From: Myxococcales bacterium
GTDB taxonomy: Bacteria; Desulfobacterota; Binatia; HRBIN30
Length of the DNA: 10,572 nucleotides
Assembly (NCBI GenBank): GCA_037445065.1
Contig: JBBILD010000038.1
Coordinates: 1-10,572 of the forward strand
Reading direction: 5' to 3'
Shown here: positions 1-10,572 of the stretch, piece by piece
Position numbering within the stretch: the first letter of the stretch is position 1
Layout of the letters: every line of letters begins with the position of its first letter
Translations under genes and position numbers: made by a program
The notes under the pieces: model-generated
Told to the model about the DNA's origin: nothing
What the model saw: the letters and a program-made list of their open reading frames with translations, nothing else
The model's database searches: none

Positions 1-1
1 C

Positions 2-379
2 AACCAGGGTTCGGCGTATGTGTTCGTGAAGCCGGGAACGGGCTGGGGGAACATGACCGAGACCGCCAAGCTCACCGCCTCGGATGGGGCCATGGATGAC
101 AACTTCGGCTCTTCCGTTGCCATTTCCGGCGACACGGTGGTAGTGGGGGCGCCGTTCGTCGACATCGACAGCAAAAGCAACCAGGGCTCGGCGTACGTGT
201 TCGCGAAGCCGGGAATGAATTGGGCGAACATGACCGAGAGTGCCCGACTTATCGCCGCGAATGGCGCTCTGGGCGACTCGTTTGGCTTCGCCGTTGCCAT
301 TTCCGGCCAGACGGCGGTGGCAGGGGCGCCGTTGGATGACATCGAGGCCAGCAGCGATCAGGGTTCGGCGTATGTGCTC
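2..379 (+). repeat. Intragenic FG-GAP tandem repeats (59 aa / 177 bp period)
   Basis: aac/gat-cagggytcggcgtaygtg recurs at 2, 179 and 356; two full units are visible. Confidence 0.85.
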
Positions 380-1318
380 TCCGACGTCCCCGTTACCCCT
401 ACGGAAACATCAACGGCAACGGCGGCAACGACACCGACAACAACACCAACGGAGGCGCCAACGGTGAGCCCGACAGATAGCCCGGCGGCATCCCCGACTT
501 TGTCGCCGAGTCCATCGGCTACGGCAACAGTCAGCCCCACCGGCACGCCGAGCCCGACCGCTACGGCCACTGTCTCCGCGACTCCGTCGTCGAGCCCGAC
601 GCTGACAGCCTCTGCCACGGCTACGGCCACACCGAGCCCGAGCAGCACGGCAACGTCCACGCCCACTCCAACGGCAACTCCTTCCTCAACCGCCACCTCG
701 AGCCCGACCCCGGTGGACACCGACGGCGACGGGGTGCCGGACGACGTCGAGGAGGCATGCGCCGAGGGCAAGAGCACCGACCCCAAAACCACCGCGCTGC
801 CCGCGGCCTCTGGCGGTGGCTGCGCGATCGTGGAGAGCGACTGCGACCAGCACTCCGCGGTGGCGGCGTTCTCGGCCAATCAAGTCGGCAGCGATGGCAA
901 TTTCTCGTATCCATTTGGCTTGGTCGGCTTCACGCTCCGGGGCTGCCGGAATGGGACCGCGCAGGTTCGGCTGACCTTCACCGCTGCCACGGATCTTTCT
1001 TCATTGACCTTCCGCAAGTTCGGCCCCTTGCCCCCGGGCAGCACAAACGCGGTGTTCTACACCCTGGCCGAGGTCAACCCGAGCGCGAATGTGACCATCT
1101 CCGGCAACACGGTCTCCTTCCAGTTGCAGGACGGGCAGCCGGGCGACGACACAGAGGTAGATGGGGTCATCGTGGACCAGGGCGGGCCGGCGCTGCCGAG
1201 TCCGGCAGCGGTACCGGTGTGGTCGGCACTGAGCCGCGCTCTGGCGGTGCTGGCGCTGGTGGTGGTGGGGATCGGGAGCTTGCTTTGGTCAGCGCTCCGC
1301 AAAGTCGCGCTGCGTTGA
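2..1318 (+). CDS. 5'-truncated cell-surface protein: FG-GAP (integrin-alpha-like beta-propeller) repeats, Thr/Pro/Ser-rich linker, DxDxDG Ca-binding motif, choice-of-anchor-U-like domain, C-terminal IPTL-CTERM-like sorting/TM anchor
   Basis: The frame is open from position 2 (NQGSAYVFVKPG...), so the GTG at 20 is internal. FG-GAP units (KLTASDG..D.FG.SVAISGDT.VVGAP...QGSAYVF) recur at a 177-bp period (2, 179, 356). A TPTATATPS-type linker spans about 386-712, followed by DTDGDGVPDDVE, then YPFGLVGFTL...FRKFGP...VSFQLQDGQPGDD...GVIVDQGGP. It ends VPVWS + hydrophobic helix + RKVALR. Confidence 0.9.
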   Translation, partial: NQGSAYVFVKPGTGWGNMTETAKLTASDGAMDDNFGSSVAISGDTVVVGAPFVDIDSKSNQGSAYVFAKPGMNWANMTESARLIAANGALGDSFGFAVAISGQTAVAGAPLDDIEASSDQGSAYVLSDVPVTPTETSTATAATTPTTTPTEAPTVSPTDSPAASPTLSPSPSATATVSPTGTPSPTATATVSATPSSSPTLTASATATATPSPSSTATSTPTPTATPSSTATSSPTPVDTDGDGVPDDVEEACAEGKSTDPKTTALPAASGGGCAIVESDCDQHSAVAAFSANQVGSDGNFSYPFGLVGFTLRGCRNGTAQVRLTFTAATDLSSLTFRKFGPLPPGSTNAVFYTLAEVNPSANVTISGNTVSFQLQDGQPGDDTEVDGVIVDQGGPALPSPAAVPVWSALSRALAVLALVVVGIGSLLWSALRKVALR

Positions 1319-1425
1319 TGTCGCCGCTTGCCACCACAGTGGGGAGCAACGACCACGACGCCACTAGCCCACGAGCAACAGGGAAGGCGTTGCGCCCGGG
1401 CGGCCTGAATCCCGTGTGCACCGTC

Positions 1426-1860
1426 GTAAGGGCGACCTTTCTACACCCCGCGGTGCACGGCCAGCGGGAAGCGGCACATGGCGACGGATCCGTTTGCAGC
1501 AACACCTGTGACCGGCGGTACAACGCCCCTGCGAGAAGGCGTAGGGGCGGTACTCAAGGCCGCCCGTGATGCGGTTGGGCATTCGGGTCAAACGGGAACA
1601 CGGGCAGGCACAAGGCCCGCCCCTACAAACCGATTCGGCGCCACCCGGAGCACGCCAGTGACCCGGATCGTTTCCCCCGATGGGCTGCGGCGTGACCCCA
1701 CACTGCCAGCAACAAACTGTAGGGGCGGCCCCTGTGGCCGCCCGTGGTGAGCGGCGAGCGGTGCTTGCAAGTAGCGAATGGCGAATGGGCGTACCGCCGG
1801 CACGGTGGTTCGGTCGCGGATATAGGGGCGGCCCTTGTGGCCGCCCGTGGCGAACGGCGA
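1426..1860. repeat. REP/BIME-like cluster A: 25-nt GTAG-initiated imperfect palindromes plus YGGCGAR heptamer repeats
   Basis: GTAGGGGCGGTACTCAAGGCCGCCC 1541-1565 (+); GTAGGGGCGGGCCTTGTGCCTGCCC 1602-1626 (-); GTAGGGGCGGCCCCTGTGGCCGCCC 1719-1743 (+); ATAGGGGCGGCCCTTGTGGCCGCCC 1822-1846 (+); a degenerate copy at 1426-1450. A GTAG tetranucleotide followed by a GC hairpin is the REP signature recognised by RAYT/TnpA-REP. Confidence 0.85.
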
Positions 1861-2287
1861 CACGGTGCTGCGATCAGCCACCGCGTGGTGCCTGCAAGGC
1901 ACCCGCGGTGCACGGCGCCGCGTGTTGAAGGTCGCGTTCCCGTCGGCAGGGACATTCTCGCTCGCCCGCTAGGCTTGCCCGAAGCCGCCGTGGTTCGGGC
2001 GTGCCTGCCGGCGGAACCTGAATTTCCAGAATTGAGATTTTTTAATTCACGCCTTTGCTAGCATAAGATAGCGTCGGCTAAACGTTCAGTTCAGTTTCCC
2101 ACATACCTAAGTGAGCTTCTCATCGGATCCTAGGGCCTTTTTGGGACCTCCTCACAAATCAACATCCTTTTCTTCGCGTCGGATCCGACCCATAGCGTCT
2201 TAAGTCTGAGAATCGCGAACCCACCTGAGCCGGTTAGAACGGCGGAGTCGTCCGCGAGCAGTGGGAGCGAGTGCCCCCGGGTTCTGA

Positions 2288-2303
2288 TGGCACAAATTCT
2301 GCA
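2288..2303 (+). promoter_or_regulatory. Sigma54 (RpoN) -24/-12 promoter of the molybdoenzyme operon
   Basis: TGGCAC-AAATT-CTGCA has GG (2289-2290) and GC (2301-2302) separated by exactly 10 nt, with one mismatch to TGGCAC-N5-TTGCW. Predicted +1 is about 2314, just ahead of the RBS AGGAGG (2320-2325) and the ATG at 2331. Confidence 0.75.
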
Positions 2304-2330
2304 CCGCCGCCGTCCGAAAAGGAGGCCCAC

Positions 2331-3158
2331 ATGGCGGAACAGCCTGCAGGGAAGTCGGATGGTGTCGGCGCGGCTGCCCCCTCCCGGCGGCAAGTGTTTC
2401 GCTGGCTCGGTGGAATCGCAGCGACGGTTGCCACCGAGGCGGTTCCCCGGGTGAACTCTGCAGCCAGTCGCTCCGGAGGCAATCCCAACCGGCGGTGGGG
2501 TATGGTGATCGACCTCAGGCGGTGCGTGGCGTGCAAGAGCTGCACGATCGCCTGCAAGAACGAAAACAAGACGCCCCCGGGGGTCGCCTACGGCGTCTTC
2601 ATCGAGGAGGAACACGGCGAGTATCCTCACGTGTATCGAACGGCCTTCTTCCGCCCTTGCATGCAGTGCGGAAACTCTCCGTGCACGAAAGTTTGTCCCA
2701 CGGGGGCGACCTACAAGCGAGCTGACGGAATCGTTGCGGTCGACTACGAGCGGTGCATTGGCTGCCGGTACTGTATCGCCTCTTGCCCGTACGGAGCGCG
2801 CTCGTTCGATTACGGTCACGAGTATATCGAACGCCCGGACAATCCTTACAATCAGATTCCTTCCAGCGAGTACGGGGCGAGATACGGCCTGCGCAAGAAG
2901 GGCAAATCACCAGTGGGAAACGTGCGCAAGTGCACGTTCTGCCTCCATCTGCAGGATGAGCACGGCGAATACCGGGAGCCTCCGGCGTGCGCTCGCACCT
3001 GTATGGGGCGGGCGATCCACTTTGGTGACCTGAAGGATCCCGAGGCGGTCTGTCTGGTCCACGGAGAACAGATGCGCGAGCTGCTGGCGCGGCGGGGGCA
3101 CTATCGTTTGAAGGAAGAACTCGGAAACGAACCAGCCGTGTACTACCTGCCGGCGTGA
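2331..3158 (+). CDS. 4Fe-4S dicluster (DmsB/NrfC/PsrB/TtrB-type) electron-transfer subunit with Tat signal
   Basis: ATG 2331 follows AGGAGG. Twin-arginine SRRQVF. RWGMVIDLRRCVACKSCTIACK, CMQCGNSPCTKVCPTGA, CIGCRYCIASCPY and KCTFC...PPACARTC give four cluster-binding groups. The C-terminus has LKEELGNEPAVYY. Confidence 0.95.
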   Translation: MAEQPAGKSDGVGAAAPSRRQVFRWLGGIAATVATEAVPRVNSAASRSGGNPNRRWGMVIDLRRCVACKSCTIACKNENKTPPGVAYGVFIEEEHGEYPHVYRTAFFRPCMQCGNSPCTKVCPTGATYKRADGIVAVDYERCIGCRYCIASCPYGARSFDYGHEYIERPDNPYNQIPSSEYGARYGLRKKGKSPVGNVRKCTFCLHLQDEHGEYREPPACARTCMGRAIHFGDLKDPEAVCLVHGEQMRELLARRGHYRLKEELGNEPAVYYLPA

Positions 3159-3174
3159 CGGGAAGGAGCGAGTG

Positions 3175-4455
3175 ATGGCGTCACAGTCACTGGTTGCTCG
3201 GATGGATTGGTGGCTTCGTGCCTTGGGTTCCTGCATCTTGCTCGCGGTCTCTGCGGTGGGGATCTGGGCCATAGCCGCTCGTTTCCGTGAGGGCCTGATC
3301 TTGACCCACATGACCCAGAATGTCCCGTGGGGATTATGGATCTCTCTCTACATATACTTTATCGGGTTGTCGGCGGGTTCGTTTCTGCTCTCGACCCTCA
3401 TCTACGTTTTCGGGGTACGCCGTTTCGAGCCGGCGGGAGCTCTGGCGCTGCTCCAGGCACTTGGGTGTCTCGCCCTTGGAATGGTGTTGATCTGGATCGA
3501 TTTGGGGCATCCGGAGCGGTTTTTGAACGTCTTCGTTCACTTCAACGCGACTTCGGTTCTTGCCTGGGAGGCGCTTTTATACGTGGCCTATAGCGCGATC
3601 GTGTTGGCGGAGCTCTATCTTGTTCTCCGTCCGGCCCTGGCGCAGAGGGCAGCCTCCGGAGGCGTTTCAGCGACTTGGTACCGGGTGTTCGAGTTCGGCG
3701 ACAGTTCGCTGAAAGAGCGATGGCAGCAGCGCGCCGCCGGGTGGCTACGAATGCTCGGCATCGTCGGGATTCCCGTGGCCATCGGCGTTCATGGGGGCAC
3801 CGGAGCGATTTTCGCAGTCGTGAAGTCGCGGCCCACCTGGTACAGTGGCTTGTTTCCGATCGTCTTTCTCGTATCGGCCCTGGCTTCGGGCGGCGGGCTG
3901 CTGACGTTCCTCGCCGCTGCGGCGTTGCGGATACGCGAGCGGCAGAAGCTGGATCTGGTGGGAGGGCTCGCGCGGCTGACCGTCGGCATTGTCGCCTTCG
4001 ATCTTCTCCTTTTGACCTCCGAGATCTTGGTGGTCTTCTACGGCGGAATTCCGCATCACCAAGCCGGCTGGCGAGAGATCCTTTTCGGGCCGTTTTGGTG
4101 GGTGTTTTGGTTCGTTCAGCTCGGGCTGGGGGCCCTTGTTCCGATTGCGATCGTATCTGGGCGGCGAACCAGAGACTCGCTGCCGTGGCTTGCTGTCGCC
4201 GGCTTGGCGGTCGCCGTCGGGATCATCGGGGTTCGGCTGAACATCGTGATTCCGGCGCAGATCGAGCCGCAGTTTCCCACGTTGCCAGACGCTTACCACC
4301 ATGTTCGGTTTAGCTACGGGTATTTCCCGAGCTCGAACGAATGGCTGGTTGGGCTCGGGGTGATCGCCCTCGGAATCTGGGCGTTTCTGCTGGCCCGGTC
4401 GGTGCTGCCGCTCGAGCCCGTCGAAGAAGGGGTGCACGGAAGGGGGGAGCGATGA
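3175..4455 (+). CDS. nrfD: NrfD/PsrC-family molybdoenzyme membrane anchor (quinol-interacting) subunit
   Basis: AAGGAG RBS at 3163-3168; start is ATG 3175 or GTG 3172. Motifs VPWGLWISLYIYFIGLSAG, DLGHPERF, FLVSALASG and FWWVFWFVQL, with many hydrophobic helices. The symbol marks the family only. Confidence 0.93.
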   Translation: MASQSLVARMDWWLRALGSCILLAVSAVGIWAIAARFREGLILTHMTQNVPWGLWISLYIYFIGLSAGSFLLSTLIYVFGVRRFEPAGALALLQALGCLALGMVLIWIDLGHPERFLNVFVHFNATSVLAWEALLYVAYSAIVLAELYLVLRPALAQRAASGGVSATWYRVFEFGDSSLKERWQQRAAGWLRMLGIVGIPVAIGVHGGTGAIFAVVKSRPTWYSGLFPIVFLVSALASGGGLLTFLAAAALRIRERQKLDLVGGLARLTVGIVAFDLLLLTSEILVVFYGGIPHHQAGWREILFGPFWWVFWFVQLGLGALVPIAIVSGRRTRDSLPWLAVAGLAVAVGIIGVRLNIVIPAQIEPQFPTLPDAYHHVRFSYGYFPSSNEWLVGLGVIALGIWAFLLARSVLPLEPVEEGVHGRGER

Positions 4456-6914
4456 TGAGAGCGGAATCGACGCGTCGGGAGTTCCTGGCGGGATCCGTCC
4501 TAGCCGGTGCAGGCCTCGGATCTTTGCTCTGCAGCAGAAGCTTCGAAGCGTTCGCGGCGGAAGTAGACCAGCGGTACGACATGCGCGCCGGAACCTGGGT
4601 GCCGAGCTGCTGCAATATGTGCGGCGGGCAGACGGGAATTCTCTGTCAGGTCGTCGAGGGACGGGTCGTACGAATTAAGCCGAATCCGTACAACCCGATC
4701 GGGTTCACGAACGTCTCGGACGACTTCTTTGCGAACTGTGCCAGGGAAGGGCCGGTGATGTGCCCGAAGGGCAACGCTGGGATCATGACTCTCTATGATC
4801 CGGATCGTCTGGCACGGCCGGTCCGCCGGACGAACCCGAACAAGGGGATCGGGATCGACCCGGGATGGAAGGAAATCACCTGGGAAGAGGCCCTCGACGA
4901 GATCACCGGACGGCTCAAGGCCTTGCGCGACGCGGGGACGCCAGAGGCACTTCTCTGGTTTTCCGAAGACCACAGTTTCACCCACATCCAAGCCGACTTC
5001 TGCCAGCTCTTCGGTACGCCTAACTACAGCATGCACTCGAGCCTCTGCGATACGTCTCGGAAAGCGAGCTTTCGCCTCGTCGTGGGGGATGAGCGGCCGC
5101 TGATGGATGCGATTCACTCGCGCTACATCCTCCTGTTCGGCTGGAACCCCGTGGGAGCCACGAAATGGTCACACCTTCCCCGGATCCTTACTCGGGCGCG
5201 GGAGCACGGGGCAAAGCTGGTCGTGGTGGATCCGTATTTTAGTGCGACCGCGCGGAAAGCGGACGAATGGATCCCCATCCGGCCCGGCACGGATGGGGCG
5301 ATGGCTCTGGCCATGGCCCACGTGATCATCCAGGAGGGCTTGTACGACCGGGAATTCGTCGAAAACTGGACTTACGGGTTCGACCGCTTTGCCGATTACG
5401 TGCGAGACAAGACGCCCGAGTGGGCGGAGCAAATCACCTCGGTTCCGGCGACGACGATCGCTCGGATTGCTCGTGAATTCGCGACCACCCAACCCGCGGT
5501 TGTGGATGCGTGGTCCGGACCGGGCCAGCATTCGAACGCGGTACTCGGCGGCGCAGCGATCGCGTGCGTGGCGGCACTCACAGGAGGCTACGACCGTCCC
5601 GGCACTCTGCATCTACCGGACGCGCGCGGAAACAAGCATGTGGACCTGGATGCGGACAAGCCGAAGGCTCCGCGCTTCGCCGACGACGACAAGCGATACC
5701 CAATGTTCCACAAGTCGGGCGTCTACTGTGAGATCTTTCGTCGCCTGGCCGAGGGGACGGGCAATTATCCGGCGAAGGTAGGGGTGATCGTGTTCCAAAA
5801 CCCGATGATGTCCGTACCGGGGACGCAGACCGTCGCCAAAGCGTTGGCGAAGCTGGAATTTCTCGTGGTGAACGACATCTTTTTGTCCGAGACGGCGCAG
5901 CTTGCCGACATCGTCCTCCCCGGCACGGTCTACTTAGAACGGTACGACTGGAACACCCACTGGGTGACGTGGCCCGCGCTCGGGCTGCGGCAGCCGGTTG
6001 TGAAGCCGTTGTTCGGGCAACCCACGGAGTACGAGTTCGTGATCGAGCTCGGGCGGCGCCTGAACCTTCGCGATCGCAGCGGAAAGGAGTTTTTCTGGAT
6101 CGGGCCCCTCTCGGGGAAGCGAATCGAAAGCCCGACCGAGTGGTACGAAGAGTACCTCTCGAGGGAGTCCCTGGAAGGAGCACCGAAAATGACGCTCGAG
6201 CAGATCAAGGCCTTGCCAGGTGCGACGTGGGTCGACTCAAGGGGCACGAGGTACCGGAAGTACGCGGAGCCGATCCCGCCGGAAAAGATGGCGACGGCCG
6301 TGGTGGTGAAAATTCAGGTAGGCGAGCTTGAAGTGGAGCAAATCTACGACAAGCCCAAGGAGGCCGGGGGGAAACGGATCGGCACGTGGTTGGGCGGGCG
6401 AGCGGTGCGAGGCTTTTTCACGCCGACCGGCAAAGTGGAATTTGTCCTGACGGCGCTCGCCGGGAAAAAGGATGCCGAGGGAAGAGAGTGTCCGGACCTT
6501 CCCGTGTACGAGCCGCGCGACTGGCAGCCGAACGAGGAGTATCCCCTTTACTTGATCAACTGGAAGGAGAGCACGCACACCCACACGCGCACGCAGAACA
6601 ACCGCTGGCTGGTGGAGCTGAAGCCGGACAACCCTCTCCAGATCCATCGCAAGACCGCTGAGCGGCTGGGGATTGCCGAGGGGGACACGGTGTGGGTCGA
6701 GTCGAGGTATGGTAGGGTCCGGGCGAGAGCGCACCTGACCGAGGAAATCCACCCCGAGGTCGTGGGGCTGCAGCACGGTTTCGGGCACTGGGCCCTCGGT
6801 GAGGTGGCCCAGGGGCGAGGCACGTCGGACAGCGCCCTTCGGCCCACCCGAGCCGAACCCATCAGCGGACAGGCGATGCACAAGCAGTGCTGCGTGCGTG
6901 TGTACCGAGCCTGA
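4452..6914 (+). CDS. Molybdopterin (bis-MGD) oxidoreductase catalytic subunit, DMSO reductase superfamily, Psr/Phs/Arr/Ttr-related, Tat-exported
   Basis: ATG 4452 overlaps the upstream stop (ATGA) after GGGAG. Tat motif TRREFL. Fe-S region CCNMC...MCPKG and LYDPDRL. GTPNYSMHSSLC places a Cys at the Mo-ligand position. Further motifs are VVVDP, ADEWIPIRPGTDGA and DIFLSETAQLADIVLPGTVYLER, plus a C-terminal MGD-binding domain (HTHTRTQNN...LGIAEGD.V.VES...HGFGH). Confidence 0.96.
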   Translation: MMRAESTRREFLAGSVLAGAGLGSLLCSRSFEAFAAEVDQRYDMRAGTWVPSCCNMCGGQTGILCQVVEGRVVRIKPNPYNPIGFTNVSDDFFANCAREGPVMCPKGNAGIMTLYDPDRLARPVRRTNPNKGIGIDPGWKEITWEEALDEITGRLKALRDAGTPEALLWFSEDHSFTHIQADFCQLFGTPNYSMHSSLCDTSRKASFRLVVGDERPLMDAIHSRYILLFGWNPVGATKWSHLPRILTRAREHGAKLVVVDPYFSATARKADEWIPIRPGTDGAMALAMAHVIIQEGLYDREFVENWTYGFDRFADYVRDKTPEWAEQITSVPATTIARIAREFATTQPAVVDAWSGPGQHSNAVLGGAAIACVAALTGGYDRPGTLHLPDARGNKHVDLDADKPKAPRFADDDKRYPMFHKSGVYCEIFRRLAEGTGNYPAKVGVIVFQNPMMSVPGTQTVAKALAKLEFLVVNDIFLSETAQLADIVLPGTVYLERYDWNTHWVTWPALGLRQPVVKPLFGQPTEYEFVIELGRRLNLRDRSGKEFFWIGPLSGKRIESPTEWYEEYLSRESLEGAPKMTLEQIKALPGATWVDSRGTRYRKYAEPIPPEKMATAVVVKIQVGELEVEQIYDKPKEAGGKRIGTWLGGRAVRGFFTPTGKVEFVLTALAGKKDAEGRECPDLPVYEPRDWQPNEEYPLYLINWKESTHTHTRTQNNRWLVELKPDNPLQIHRKTAERLGIAEGDTVWVESRYGRVRARAHLTEEIHPEVVGLQHGFGHWALGEVAQGRGTSDSALRPTRAEPISGQAMHKQCCVRVYRA

Positions 6915-6961
6915 GCCGGTGCGGACAGGAACAAACTCACCGGGCAACGGGAGACCAGAAA

Positions 6962-8161
6962 ATGCGCGCGACAATTTTAGCTGTCGCAGGTGCGTTCGTG
7001 CTGATGGGGTTCGTGGGCGGGGTGATCGCAGAGACCCACGAGGAGCGACTTCAGCGCCTGGAGCAGAAGCTGCGAGACTACGAGCGGGTGGGACGCGAAC
7101 TCCGGGAGGAAATGGAACTTCTGAACGCACCGGAAGCACCCTCCGGGGTCGCCCAGAAGCCCGATACCGCTCCCCCGTTCGAGGTCCGGATCGGAAGAGG
7201 AGTCGCGACGATCGGCGGTCTCCTGCAGGTCTGGGGTCTCCACAGCGAGCTCGGTCCTGACGACTTCCTCCTCCGTCGGTCCGAACTCAACCTAAAGGGC
7301 TCGATCATCGACTGGTTCGGATACACGGTAATGATCGATCCGGCGAAGACGCTGAGCAAGAACAAGACGATCCTGGTGGGCACCGAAGCCGTCACCCTTT
7401 CCCAACCCAAGAGCGACGCGAAGATTCTCCAGGACCTGTTCGTGACCTTGAAGCTCGTCTCCCACCACACGATCGATGTGGGACAGAAAAAAATCCCCAT
7501 AAGCATGGAGGGTCTCGAGTCTTCGGCGGAACTGGATTTTCCGGAACGGGCGATCGTGAGCGGGGCCACGTTCCAGGGCCACAGGGGGTTCGGGGACTTC
7601 CGGGAGCCGGGAATCCAACTGAACGGGGAATGGCCGCACGTGTCCTACACGGTCGGGGTGTTCAACGGCGAGGGGCCGAACGCGTCGGACAAGAACGACC
7701 GTAAAGACATCGCCGAGCGAGTGGTCGTGAGACCCTTCCCGTGGCTTCATCTGGGCGGGTCGCGCTACGACGGCTGGCTGGGTCCTCAGAAAATCCGAAA
7801 GAACCGGACCGGTGGTGAGTTCAAGCTGGCCTACGAGCCGATCTTCCTGAAAGGGGAGTATATCCGGGCCTACGATGGTCCCGTGGCGAAAGAAGGGTGG
7901 TACGTATCGGCGGGCTACCGCTTCGGAGGCCTGCGGGTGGGTCGGGTGCGGTTCGACCTCCAGCCGGCCGTGCGCTGGGAAGGCTTCGATCCAGACCGCG
8001 ACGTGGGCGAGAACTCGATCTCCGGGCCCACTGTCGGGGTGAGTCTCCTCTTCGACGAGTACTACGCCAAGATCCAGGGAAGCTATAGCCACTTCGAAGT
8101 CCGTGGTGCAGGAAGGGAAGACGAGGATCTGCTGACTGCGGCTTTCCAAGTGGCGTTTTGA
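6962..8161 (+). CDS. Outer-membrane porin, OprO/OprP (phosphate/anion-selective)-like, with N-terminal coiled coil
   Basis: GGGAG RBS then ATG 6962. Sec signal MRATILAVAGAFVLMGFVGGVIA and coiled coil EERLQRLEQKLRDYE. Motifs FLLRRSELNLKG, VGQKKIPISMEGLESSAELDFPER and YTVGVFNGEG.N..D.ND.KD...R. Alternating beta-strands end in a terminal Phe (AAFQVAF), the BAM signal. Confidence 0.85.
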   Translation: MRATILAVAGAFVLMGFVGGVIAETHEERLQRLEQKLRDYERVGRELREEMELLNAPEAPSGVAQKPDTAPPFEVRIGRGVATIGGLLQVWGLHSELGPDDFLLRRSELNLKGSIIDWFGYTVMIDPAKTLSKNKTILVGTEAVTLSQPKSDAKILQDLFVTLKLVSHHTIDVGQKKIPISMEGLESSAELDFPERAIVSGATFQGHRGFGDFREPGIQLNGEWPHVSYTVGVFNGEGPNASDKNDRKDIAERVVVRPFPWLHLGGSRYDGWLGPQKIRKNRTGGEFKLAYEPIFLKGEYIRAYDGPVAKEGWYVSAGYRFGGLRVGRVRFDLQPAVRWEGFDPDRDVGENSISGPTVGVSLLFDEYYAKIQGSYSHFEVRGAGREDEDLLTAAFQVAF

Positions 8162-8509
8162 TTCCCGGGCCTCGGGCTCGAGCCGTTTCGGCGAGGGAGG
8201 AACGGGTGGTCAGGAAGCCGCCGCCGAGAAGGCCTTTCCCGCGTCGGGGCAAACCTTTTCGGGAGACCGGCGGCTGTATCGGTCGGAGGCACTTCTGTTT
8301 CCGATGGGTCCGGAAGGAGCCGGGCGACCCGGTCGCCGCACGGGGCCCGGCTCGCGAGATGCTCGCGACGGAGCGGATAATCATTCTGGCCGCGTTTTCG
8401 TGAAGCTTGATGTCCAAGCGGCCTCGCAAGTGGCTTGTTGCCAACATGGTCTAGGAGGGCTGCGCGGAGAAGATCAGCGCTGGGTTGGGTCTGCTCGCCC
8501 CTGAAGACG

Positions 8510-8805
8510 TTGTAAGGGCGGGCCTTGTGCCTGCCCGTGTTTCAGATCGAACCGGATGCCCCATCGCGTCGGCCGCGCCATGCCACGGCCGTCGCACCCC
8601 GGCATCTTGCCGGCGGCGCGCCTGCACGATCGGAACAGCGCGCCAATGGTGCCGCGGGCGGCGACAAGGGCCGCCCCTACACCCTCTCGGATGTGGCGCC
8701 GGTGCCAGGTGCCGGTCACAGGTTCCATTCGCCATTCGCTACTTACCGCTCGCCGCCCGCCATCCGCGAATCGCAGCGCGGGCGGCCACAAGGGTCGCGC
8801 CGACA
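8510..8805. repeat. REP/BIME-like cluster B (inverted homologue of cluster A)
   Basis: GTAAGGGCGGGCCTTGTGCCTGCCC 8512-8536 (+); GTAGGGGCGGCCCTTGTCGCCGCCC 8656-8680 (-); GTCGGCGCGACCCTTGTGGCCGCCC 8780-8804 (-); heptamer run 8725-8762. Confidence 0.85.
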
Positions 8806-9711
8806 TCACTGCGATCCGCTGCCGAGCTTGCGGCAGGCGCGCAGCTTGGCACTGGCAGCGCGTGGATTGGCTTCGACTTCGGCTGGGCTCGGCCGCACGG
8901 GCTTGCGGGTGAGCACTTCCACCAAGCCGCGCTGGGCGCCATCGCGGAAGAAGTGTTTCACGATCCGATCTTCGAGCGAGTGGAATGAAATCACCACTAG
9001 GCGGCCATCGGGAGCAAGGCAGCGTAGCGCTTGGGGCAGAGCGGTGTGCAGGGCGCTGAGTTCGTCGTTCACGGCGATCCGCAAAGCCTGGAAGATGCGC
9101 GCCGCGGAGCGTGCTGCCTGCCAGCGCACCGGCTTCGGTAGAGAGGCTTCGATGACGTCGTACAGTTCGCGAGTGGTGCGCACCGGGCGCGCCTCGGTAA
9201 TGCGCTGGGCGATCCGGCGGGCGTAGCGCTCCTCGCCCCATTGGGAAAACATGCGGGCGAGCTCGCTAGCCGCGAGGGTGTTTAACAACTCAGCGGCGGT
9301 TGCTTGCGTGCCAGGGGAGAAACGCATGTCGAGCGGTTCGTCACGCTGGAACGAAAAGCCGCGGCCGCTGCGGTCGAGGTGATAGGAACTCAGCCCGAGA
9401 TCGAACAAAACGCCCGCGAAGGAGGGAAACCCATGATCGCGCGCCACCTCTTCGAGCTGGGAAAAGCTCGCGCAAACCAGAACCACCCGGCCTTGCTCGA
9501 TTTCGCGTGCGAAGCGCGCCCGCGCCTGGTCGAGCATCGCACCATCGCGGTCGAGTCCGAGCAGGCGCCCGCCGGGTTCGATGGCCTGTAGGATCCGTGC
9601 CGCGTGCCCACCTCCGTCAACGGTCGCGTCGAGGTACGGAAGGCCAGGCCTGGGGGCGAGGAAGTCGAGGACCTCGCGCACCAAAACCGGTATGTGTACC
9701 TGCTCGCTCAC
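8806..9711 (-). CDS. rsmH: 16S rRNA (cytosine(1402)-N(4))-methyltransferase RsmH (MraW)
   Basis: HIPVLVREVL, DATVDGGGHA, LLGLDRD, GVLFDLGLSS..LD...RGFSF..D.PLDMR, WGEERYARRIA, FQALRIAVNDEL, GRLVVISFHSLEDRIVKHFF, NPRAASAKLR. Confidence 0.97.
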   Translation of the reverse strand: MSEQVHIPVLVREVLDFLAPRPGLPYLDATVDGGGHAARILQAIEPGGRLLGLDRDGAMLDQARARFAREIEQGRVVLVCASFSQLEEVARDHGFPSFAGVLFDLGLSSYHLDRSGRGFSFQRDEPLDMRFSPGTQATAAELLNTLAASELARMFSQWGEERYARRIAQRITEARPVRTTRELYDVIEASLPKPVRWQAARSAARIFQALRIAVNDELSALHTALPQALRCLAPDGRLVVISFHSLEDRIVKHFFRDGAQRGLVEVLTRKPVRPSPAEVEANPRAASAKLRACRKLGSGSQ

Positions 9712-10460
9712 CGTAGAGGAGGCTGGGTCGCGCCGACCACCTGCAACACTTCGTCCATGGACAGCGCCCTGGGATAGATCTGAACGCCGCGGATGCGGCT
9801 ACGCGCACCGGGGGCACCATCGGGATGGTCGGAGCCAATGTACCACGGAGTTCCCGGCGGAATGACGATTTCACCGGTGTACTCGCGCGATCCGGCAGGT
9901 GCTCCATCTATATACAAGCTTGCCACGCCATCCCCCCACGTAGCGGTCACCGCGTGCCACTCGTCCGGCTTCCAGTGCAAGATGTTCACGCCTACCCCGC
10001 TCTCCACACCTTCGTCGGTGGCCAGCAAGAAGCGTAAGAAGGGACCGTTTTTGAAGATCTGGATGCGATTTTCGAAGGAGTGCGTTCGCCACTGGAAATA
10101 AGCTGCGTTGCTTTCCGCCTCACCGGTCCAAGCCGGCTGAACCCAAAACGACACCGTGCCGGCGAAGCTGGGCAGGTCGGGCGGGGGCACCACGACAAAG
10201 CGCGCCAGCGGCCCGAAAAACGCCCCCAGGTCGTCGTAGGTCACATCCTCGGCGGCAGCTGGGGCGAGGCCGTTGGATTCCGTTTTGCCTTGCGCTAGCG
10301 GCAGCGACGCAACTGCCCCGAGGCTTTGCGCCACGGCGTCTTCCGCGCTGAGAGTCTCTGTCCCTGCGGCGCTTGCCTCTTCGCTGACCGCCGCCGGTTC
10401 CGCGGCTGTGTCGCGCCGCGGCCCGCCGGCAGCGAGCGGCGCCGCAGCCGGCTGATCCCC
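9708..10460 (-). CDS. LamG-like jellyroll (concanavalin A-like) domain protein, apparently 5'-truncated
   Basis: GTVSFWVQP...WHAVTATW...ASLYIDG...WYIGS...IRGVQIYPRALS.DEV is a Laminin_G_3-type pattern, preceded by an Ala/Glu/Pro-rich linker. Its stop overlaps the rsmH GTG (GTGA 9708-9711). The ORF-track N-terminus (10461-10565) is the antisense of an mtaB-like fragment, so the true start is missing. Confidence 0.8.
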   Translation of the reverse strand, partial: GDQPAAAPLAAGGPRRDTAAEPAAVSEEASAAGTETLSAEDAVAQSLGAVASLPLAQGKTESNGLAPAAAEDVTYDDLGAFFGPLARFVVVPPPDLPSFAGTVSFWVQPAWTGEAESNAAYFQWRTHSFENRIQIFKNGPFLRFLLATDEGVESGVGVNILHWKPDEWHAVTATWGDGVASLYIDGAPAGSREYTGEIVIPPGTPWYIGSDHPDGAPGARSRIRGVQIYPRALSMDEVLQVVGATQPPLR

Positions 10461-10572
10461 CACAGCGCGCGGGCCTGCGCGTAGTCTGCCCGCGGAGAAA
10501 GTCCTGGAACAGGTGCGGCTGCTGCGGGAGCGCGGTTTCCGCGAGATCGTACTCACCGGCATCAACCTGGGG
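10459..10572 (+). other. mtaB: Internal fragment of a MiaB-family radical-SAM tRNA methylthiotransferase (MtaB-like), joined at a sharp junction and running off the window end
   Basis: My translation of frame +1 is PTARGPARSLPAEKVLEQVRLLRERGFREIVLTGINLG, matching the methylthiotransferase segment right after the CxxxCxxC motif (IP.ARG..RS......E.VLTGINLG). It is preceded by an in-frame TGA (10453-10455) and has no start or N-terminal domain. Confidence 0.8.

Follow-up and report, generated by a model that had tools for sequence, protein, structure and literature searches.

Among described enzymes, the best solved and best hidden Markov model (HMM) relatives of the system reported here are PsrABC of Thermus thermophilus (PDB 2vpw) and PhsABC of Salmonella. 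In both, a catalytic subunit exported by the twin-arginine translocation (Tat) pathway and containing molybdenum bis(pyranopterin guanine dinucleotide) (Mo-bisPGD) with a cysteine ligand is combined with a four-cluster iron-sulfur (Fe-S) subunit and an NrfD-type membrane anchor. Corresponding genes were found in a 10,572-nt stretch of DNA from a Myxococcales bacterium (JBBILD010000038.1; hereafter the window, positions 1-10572), which is the entire contig C38 of a 3.79 Mb genome in 46 contigs, 97.7% complete. Four genes are tightly packed on the + strand, encoding the Fe-S subunit (B), the anchor (C), the catalytic subunit (A) and an outer-membrane porin (Table 1). The window differs from PsrABC and PhsABC in its gene order (B-C-A against A-B-C), in its anchor (10 helices against 8 in PsrC; PMC8076601), in the first Fe-S motif (FS0) of A, which reads CC-x2-C-x3-S/T/C, in the residues of the substrate pocket, and in having its own porin. 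The predicted product is very probably a periplasm-facing, membrane-anchored respiratory molybdoenzyme served by its own outer-membrane anion channel. Its activity is taken to be that of a quinol-linked periplasmic oxyanion reductase with arsenate as the leading candidate substrate, a reading drawn from the relatives of A and not from its own genome, and to which we give a probability of roughly 40%.

Arsenic enzymes and tetrathionate reductases share other parts of this arrangement. The likeness to ArrAB(C) and ArxAB(C) is seen at some relatives of A, which lie behind an AioX/ArxX/ArrX-type protein and a kinase; a sigma54 regulator and a -24/-12 promoter at A relatives are further points in common with Aio and Arx (PMC5908839). 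TtrBCA is alike in its B-C-A order only, and A scores 98 bits with the TtrA model against a cut-off of 1750, which argues that the window enzyme is not Ttr-like. Respiration of arsenate without Arr is reported for Melioribacter roseus, in which Mros1074-1076 (Ttr-type, beside ArrTSR and ars genes) and Mros1774-1776 (Psr/Phs-type) are both arsenate-induced; the catalytic subunit of the former set, Mros1076, is last, consistent with the order B-C-A (PMC5492636; PMC3534657). This Ttr-like type also includes a TtrA homologue of Anaeromyxobacter sp. PSR-1. Soil transcripts of a TtrA homologue are reported to exceed those of arrA, and the soil ttrA primers for quantitative PCR to span 274 bp (PMC11462812). 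The motifs GYPxK and YLER are 189 bp apart in the window, against 274 bp if the primers fall there; this comparison, made by hand translation, is weak and points in the same direction, ie away from a Ttr-like enzyme. When an Ignavibacteriaceae homologue was used as the query, none of the 120 best matches (67-91% identity) was named Melioribacter.

Table 1. Positions of the predicted operon and its putative control elements in the window.
Feature	Position	Strand	Basis or remark
TCGGATCC core, first copy	2123-2130		Candidate upstream activator site, located some 160 nt upstream of the -24 element
Perfect 12-nt palindrome GTCGGATCCGAC	2178-2189		Candidate enhancer-binding-protein site, 99-110 nt upstream of -24/-12
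Sigma54-type -24/-12 promoter TGGCACaaattcTGCA	2288-2303	+	One mismatch to TGGCAC-N5-TTGCW; GG-N10-GC spacing correct
Subunit B, Tat-exported four-cluster Fe-S protein, 275 residues	2331-3158	+	Pfam Fer4 / 4Fe-4S dicluster families
B to C junction	2331-3158 / 3172-4455	+	13-nt gap
Subunit C, NrfD-type membrane anchor, 427 residues	3172-4455	+	Pfam NrfD, 2.8e-49
C to A junction	3172-4455 / 4452-6914	+	ATGA overlap, ATG of A over TGA of C
Subunit A, Tat-exported Mo-bisPGD catalytic subunit, 820 residues	4452-6914	+	Pfam domains, Tat motif, molybdenum-ligand Cys199
A to porin junction	4452-6914 / 6962-8161	+	47-nt gap
OprO/P-type outer-membrane porin, 399 residues, with signal peptide and N-terminal helix 26-55	6962-8161	+	Pfam Porin_O_P

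An earlier note on this DNA had described a -24/-12 promoter, a Tat Fe-S subunit, an NrfD anchor, a Tat catalytic subunit with an ATGA overlap, and a porin, and all five were found again. It had also stated that phs operons begin with A, as the order A-B-C of phsABC confirms, and had proposed that the oxidoreductase was an uncharacterised one. On this last point, A was not placed at high identity within any characterised clade. Proteins named PhsA by the Prokaryotic Genome Annotation Pipeline (PGAP; on Salmonella and E. coli plasmids) share 28-30% identity with it, and the cut-offs of the NCBIfam models for PhsA (NF012032, an equivalog; 393.2 bits, cut-off 694), ArrA (NF041714; 233.2 bits, cut-off 1600) and TtrA (NF011567; 97.8 bits, cut-off 1750) were not reached. 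Membership of the wider superfamily is indicated by the Pfam matches Molybdopterin (PF00384, 1.6e-34), Molydop_binding (PF01568, 1.6e-24) and Molybdop_Fe4S4 (PF04879, 3.5e-6), by the Tat motif STRREFL at residues 5-11 (counted from the 4452 start), and by the solved relatives, of which PsrA of Thermus was the best (E 1.5e-78) and ArrA of Shewanella gave 8.7e-58. No clade fitting A is named in the available portion of Wells 2023, and PMC10732223 deals with other complexes.

The 120 best proteins of the A family were aligned to define its signature. E172, D173, H195, C199, D200, R203, K204, R215 and P216 are invariant in 120/120, as is the motif D-x-W-S-G at residues 352-356. Cys199 aligns with the molybdenum ligands Cys173 of PsrA and Cys193 of ArrA. 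Equivalents of ArrA His189, Cys193 and Lys198 are kept in A, and the position of ArrA Tyr210 is taken by Arg215. The lysine five residues after the ligand cysteine (K198 in ArrA) is common to A and ArrA and is lacking in PhsA and PsrA; the histidine at the ArrA-189 position is found in PhsA as well. The substrate motifs described for ArrA and ArxA are RGRY and GRGWG (PMC13685797). The corresponding positions (163-166 in ArrA, 164-168 in ArxA) read W-F-S-E-D-H in A, and this reading is near-invariant in the family. The first Fe-S motif of A (residues 53-65, window 4608-4646) has the form given above in place of C-x2-C-x3-C; its third position is Ser in 76, Thr in 36 and Cys in 8 of the 120 relatives. 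C54-x2-C57 and C104 are conserved in all or nearly all of the 120 proteins (119 and 120), and the extra C53 is present in 113/120; the cluster may be of the 3Fe or the 4Fe type. Together, these sequence comparisons show A to be a member of a large, uncharacterised clade within a known enzyme superfamily, separate from the named families. The cofactor of A is predicted to be Mo-bisPGD, in keeping with the genes for cofactor synthesis and TorD-type chaperones which recur beside its relatives (MoaA, MoeA, MoaC, MobA, a MOT1-type molybdate transporter and TorD-type proteins).

The clade is widely distributed. In a large protein collection 6219 relatives were recognised among 8000 candidates scored, and the best 119 listed (besides the window's own protein) were 60-80% identical to A and bore names of metagenome-assembled genomes (MAGs) or automatic labels throughout. 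Of 248 candidate stretches from species genomes, 242 encoded relatives of A; the 80 best of these were retained and make up 78 loci. A is 55-80% identical to many MAG proteins across more than 20 phylum labels. The MAGs in which the loci lie are labelled Planctomycetota, Myxococcales, Bacteroidota, Omnitrophota, Chloroflexota, Methylomirabilota, Nitrospirota, Armatimonadota, Actinomycetota and others. Among the loci kept, identity is highest in Planctomycetota (76-80%) and in a single Myxococcales MAG (78-79%). The remaining copies from Planctomycetota share only 51-67% with A, and this spread argues for transfer between phyla. The gene order is B-C-A at 51/78 loci, B-A at 15, C-A at 5 (mostly contig ends), and A alone or A-B at the remaining 7. 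Three members of a subclade 50% identical to A (L078, L083 and L084) have the order A-B with no C adjoining, a TorD-type gene and the full family signature. Where the upstream region was scanned (L083, L084), a gene for a c7/c3-type multihaem cytochrome lies directly upstream of A, which suggests that this subclade is a soluble, cytochrome-linked form.

The other two subunits are consistent with a membrane-bound complex. B has the twin-arginine motif SRRQVF and 16 cysteines in four ferredoxin-type groups of the [4Fe-4S] kind; its best NCBIfam scores are with DsrO (177 bits, cut-off 200) and then TtrB (145), and its matches in the PDB are PsrB (2vpw_B, 4.5e-36) and ArrB (6cz7_B, 1.7e-32). The NCBIfam model that C matches best is that of DsrP, with 107.6 bits (cut-off 350), and no solved relative was found with phmmer. 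A hydropathy scan gave about 10 hydrophobic helices, which is the count of the ActC type, the PsrC type having 8 (PMC8076601). These data show C to be, as far as its sequence can be read, a quinone-interacting NrfD-type anchor without cofactor motifs.

The porin matched Pfam Porin_O_P (PF07396) with 46.9 bits (cut-off 20.9), and 28 of 30 porin homologues carry this family. No solved relative was found by sequence (phmmer, solved chains). Among solved structures, an AlphaFold2 model (mean predicted local distance difference test score 82.4) was matched best in Foldseek by OprP (2o4v, E 4.9e-14) and OprO (4rjw), with a template-modelling score of about 0.6, and the porin has the OprP/OprO fold, that of the 16-strand trimeric porins. 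The phosphate and diphosphate porins OprP and OprO of Pseudomonas are thus alike in Pfam family and as best structural match, but they are only about 15% identical in the structural alignment, belong to the Pho regulon and not to a respiratory operon, and lack the extra helix at residues 26-55. In the model this long helix (window 7037-7126) lies between the signal helix and the barrel and may be a periplasmic stalk. Three clusters of porin-like open reading frames (ORFs) beside the relatives are homologous to one another and to the window porin (hhalign probability 99.4-99.5%); inspection by eye showed heptad-like N-terminal stretches in porins from two of these clusters, and one porin homologue has an SLH domain. 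In the OprO/OprP porins, an arginine ladder and a lysine cluster confer selectivity for phosphate. Many Arg and Lys residues are invariant in the porin-family alignment.

The earlier note had proposed that the porin was dedicated to the enzyme, and had suggested looking for a conserved order B-C-A-porin at homologues. A homologous porin, always on the operon strand, was found at 35/78 loci (34 by hmmsearch profiles and L046 by tblastn), none of them among the 16 Chloroflexota and Actinomycetota loci (0/16, against 35/62 elsewhere). The comparison of loci therefore shows a conserved partnership of the porin with the A-family operon. The porin gene follows A in the window and at L008, L010, L015, L025, L027, L044 and L046, and elsewhere it precedes B; the exact order B-C-A-porin is confined to the window and two close relatives, L008 and L010. 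Because of the type of porin, the substrate is expected to be an anion.

Predicted control by sigma54, also proposed in the earlier note, recurs at related loci. The ATG at 2331 is 28 nt downstream of the -24/-12 promoter, with AGGAGG (2320-2325) between them. Sites with no more than one mismatch to the -24/-12 consensus number 53 genome-wide (both strands, 7.59 Mb in total), so that a chance occurrence within 100 nt upstream of B is unlikely. The genome has rpoN (contig C2) and several NtrC-type regulators elsewhere; no NtrC-type regulator is encoded in the window. Upstream of the operon's first gene in the relatives, a sigma54-type site with at most one mismatch was present at 6 of 60 testable loci (0.35 expected), and with at most two mismatches at 12 of 60 (2.95 expected), showing that predicted sigma54 control is recurrent across related loci. 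The core TCGGATCC is common to its first copy and the palindrome further downstream. The distance of the palindrome from the promoter is the usual spacing for sigma54 activator sites, and the palindrome and repeated core may be candidate sites of this kind. A scan of 1300-8900 on both strands gave no sigma70-like promoter. On the + strand the only terminator-like matches in this range, at 3561 and 4369, both lie inside C and are weak, with stems of 5 bp; such matches overall were at background (7 found, 7.0 expected). Among the five sequencing runs listed, no RNA run covering the stretch was found. The best explanation is that the four genes form one sigma54-dependent operon, for which co-transcription is predicted.

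The arsenic link comes from the neighbours of the relatives. At 9/78 loci (L007, L014, L025, L026, L062, L070, L078, L080 and L081) a Phosphonate-bd protein, X, is encoded upstream; at L007, the locus examined, X is followed by a histidine kinase and then by a sigma54-dependent response regulator (X-S-R). The profile of X gave 262 bits with ArrX (6x6b), 206 with AioX and no more than 121 with PtxB and PhnD. Its invariant residues C127, Y154, S184, H215 and D233 correspond at a constant offset to Cys106, Tyr131, Ser161, His192 and Asp210 of AioX, in which the pocket cysteine is reported to be one that PhnD lacks (PMC5908839). By these sequence criteria X is a member of the AioX/ArxX/ArrX arsenic-sensing subfamily. 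The same paper reports that arsenite is the ligand of AioX and ArxX and arsenate that of ArrX, and that AioR and ArxR are of the sigma54 type, unlike ArrR (PMC5908839). Other genes related to arsenic or phosphate were seen: ArsC-like proteins at L013 (159 bits) and L079 (150 bits; cut-off 174 for both), ACR3 in two pieces at L056 (215 and 205 bits, cut-off 283), ArsR-type proteins at L024 and L079, and PstS above the cut-off at L034 and L081, with a PstS-family protein below the cut-off at L048. The candidate substrates listed in the earlier note (thiosulfate or polythionate, selenite or selenate, arsenate, antimonate and tellurite) are narrowed by the X-S-R sensor, ars and pst genes towards arsenic oxyanions, which lead as candidates ahead of sulfur compounds and other metalloids.

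The predicted direction, from quinol to substrate, is based on three observations. The genome of the window encodes MenB above the cut-off (MenA below it), the phyla carrying the relatives are mostly menaquinone phyla, and FNR-type regulators lie beside some of the relatives (L013, L014 and L041). MqnA and MqnD of the futalosine pathway were not found in the search of the genome. In the mechanism proposed, an NtrC-class activator would fire the -24/-12 promoter and the porin would admit the anionic substrate to the periplasm. Menaquinol would be oxidised at C, and its electrons would pass through B to the FS0 cluster and on to Mo-bisPGD in A, where the substrate would be reduced.

Several observations weigh against arsenate. 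Firstly, no homologue of X was found by tblastn or by profile in the genome to which the window belongs (97.7% complete, window included), in which respect the window differs from the ArrAB(C) and ArxAB(C) systems. X is present at only 9 of the 78 loci and ArsC or ACR3 at only three, and other loci carry genes for Crp/Fnr, LysR, Rrf2, MarR or ECF-sigma (extracytoplasmic function) proteins instead. An ArrX-like sensor need not mean arsenic, because in Methanoperedens elements such sensors are reported also beside a putative sulfur reductase, SreA (PMC13444090). Within A itself, neither RGRY nor GRGWG is present and two invariant acidic residues are found in their place, the tyrosine of ArrA (Tyr210) is replaced by Arg215, and the nearest named family by HMM is PhsA and not ArrA.

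The same modular logic is seen in a cultured bacterium. On plasmid pAZKH of Azoarcus sp. KH32C (L099, record 52310-66252) there are arsA-ACR3, a divergent X-S-R set and B-C-A-TorD. The Azoarcus X, a PhnD-like protein set with a kinase and a sigma54 regulator, is 40% identical to the X of the A family, and around the ligand cysteine its A has H-x-S-x-C-(D/E)-x-S-(R/K)-K, as in the family studied here. This uncharacterised enzyme differs, however, in that its A has 879 residues and is 29% identical, its anchor is a 285-residue TtrC-like protein, and no porin lies within the stretch. The Azoarcus cluster encodes a different B-C-A enzyme, so the logic of X-S-R with B-C-A is present in at least two enzyme families. 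In the Azoarcus A the substrate-motif position is occupied by G-R-N-R-T-G, which resembles the GRN(R/Q)G described for Arx of Methanoperedens, and the third Fe-S position is Asp.

The alternative that survives best, which we nevertheless regard as unlikely, is a reductase of sulfur compounds (polysulfide, thiosulfate or tetrathionate) of the PsrABC/PhsABC kind, whose porin would admit thiosulfate or polythionate. It would account for PhsA (393 bits, 28-30% identity) and Thermus PsrA (E 1.5e-78) being the nearest named relatives, for the label thiosulfate/polysulfide reductase chain A given to relatives by the Joint Genome Institute (JGI) pipeline, for a TauE/SafE-type gene among the cofactor genes at three loci, and for the ArrX-like sensors beside a putative sulfur reductase in Methanoperedens elements (PMC13444090). 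The score is, however, far under the PhsA cut-off of 694, and the order B-C-A is not that of phsABC. His145 and Arg332 of PsrA, which Jormakka is said to have described in 2008 as substrate-related, align with Glu172 and Ser355 of A. No rhodanese, Sud or other sulfur-handling genes were present among the 221 neighbour ORFs scanned, and many of the hosts are labelled as aerobic lineages of soil and groundwater.

A reductase that acts on some other metalloid oxyanion (selenite or selenate, antimonate, tellurate or similar), with the porin and the cysteine-bearing sensor tuned to that anion, is rather improbable. The order B-C-A is also that of srdBCA, and at the substrate positions the signature of A departs from that of all assayed families. 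At L054 and L060 the operon is followed by chromate-transporter genes. SrrA, SrdA and other selenium enzymes are placed within the same superfamily lineages (PMC10100899). The neighbour ORFs scanned nevertheless contained no selenium- or tellurium-specific genes, and X gave 91 bits with a model for a putative selenate-binding protein (cut-off 250), far less than with ArrX and AioX.

There is a small chance that the enzyme runs in the opposite direction, as an Arx-like arsenite (or antimonite) oxidase feeding electrons into the quinone pool. Around the molybdenum-ligand cysteine, the invariant Glu, Asp, His and Arg recall the polar pocket of Aio, and several host labels are those of aerobes. 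The regulator beside relatives is sigma54-dependent, as are AioR and ArxR and unlike ArrR (PMC5908839). X is, however, nearer to ArrX, which binds arsenate, than to AioX, and its alignment with ArrX covers 256 positions with a single one-residue gap, so that the longer loop of AioX is lacking (PMC5908839). Moreover, the GRGWG motif of ArxA is absent, uncharged As(OH)3 needs no anion porin, and with mostly menaquinone phyla and MenB in the genome the transfer of electrons from arsenite to quinone would be unfavourable. A non-catalytic electron-transfer module, with A lacking the cofactor as in QrcB or ActB, is scarcely credible: B and C do score best with DsrO and DsrP, whose partner complexes are haem-based or have no cofactor, and Ser or Thr replaces the third FS0 cysteine in 112/120 relatives, but the molybdenum-ligand cysteine and its surroundings are invariant in 120/120 and genes for MoaA, MoeA, MoaC, MobA, a MOT1-type transporter and TorD-type chaperones cluster with the relatives.

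The flanks of the window are unrelated to the operon. Upstream, 2-1318 encodes an FG-GAP / choice-of-anchor-U protein; downstream, on the minus strand, 8806-9711 and 9708-10571 encode RsmH and a LamG-domain protein. The GC content is 62.2% in the operon, 62.9% in the genome and 66% in the flanks; a GC anomaly was considered as a sign of transfer and rejected, as the operon is close to the genome and the flanks alone are higher. The 1-kb non-coding stretch upstream of the operon contains three direct copies and one inverted copy of a repeat some 38 nt long, TAGGGGCGG...GGCCGCCCGTG (1541-1860), which is rich in GC and partly palindromic and by its look is a dispersed element like the repetitive extragenic palindromic (REP) sequences. 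With a loose pattern, 34 copies were counted genome-wide on 14 contigs. The genome has at least four further molybdopterin-oxidoreductase genes, 28-43% identical over parts, on contigs C3 (about 11.1-13.2 kb), C7 (about 11.5-12.9 kb), C10 and C16.

Molybdoenzymes of this superfamily determine which oxyanions microbes respire, and gene surveys for arsenic, selenium and sulfur rest on a few assayed clades. The A clade is large and highly conserved, and is found in lineages that dominate aquifers and soils. Should arsenate be its substrate, the A family would be a further non-Arr lineage of respiratory arsenate reductase. Our tentative proposal is that the family may be an unrecognised lineage of respiratory arsenic enzymes, distinct from Arr/Arx, Aio and the Ttr-like type, which has spread by transfer among bacteria of soil, groundwater and hot springs with more than 20 phylum labels, and which in diderms is coupled to a phosphate-type porin that would bring in arsenate, a look-alike of phosphate. 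If this is true, surveys that rely on arrA, arxA and aioA would overlook the A family altogether, and if A reduces arsenate, estimates of which organisms mobilise groundwater arsenic would change. The recurrence of a periplasmic reductase together with an anion porin of its own offers a testable model for how scarce anionic acceptors cross the outer membrane.

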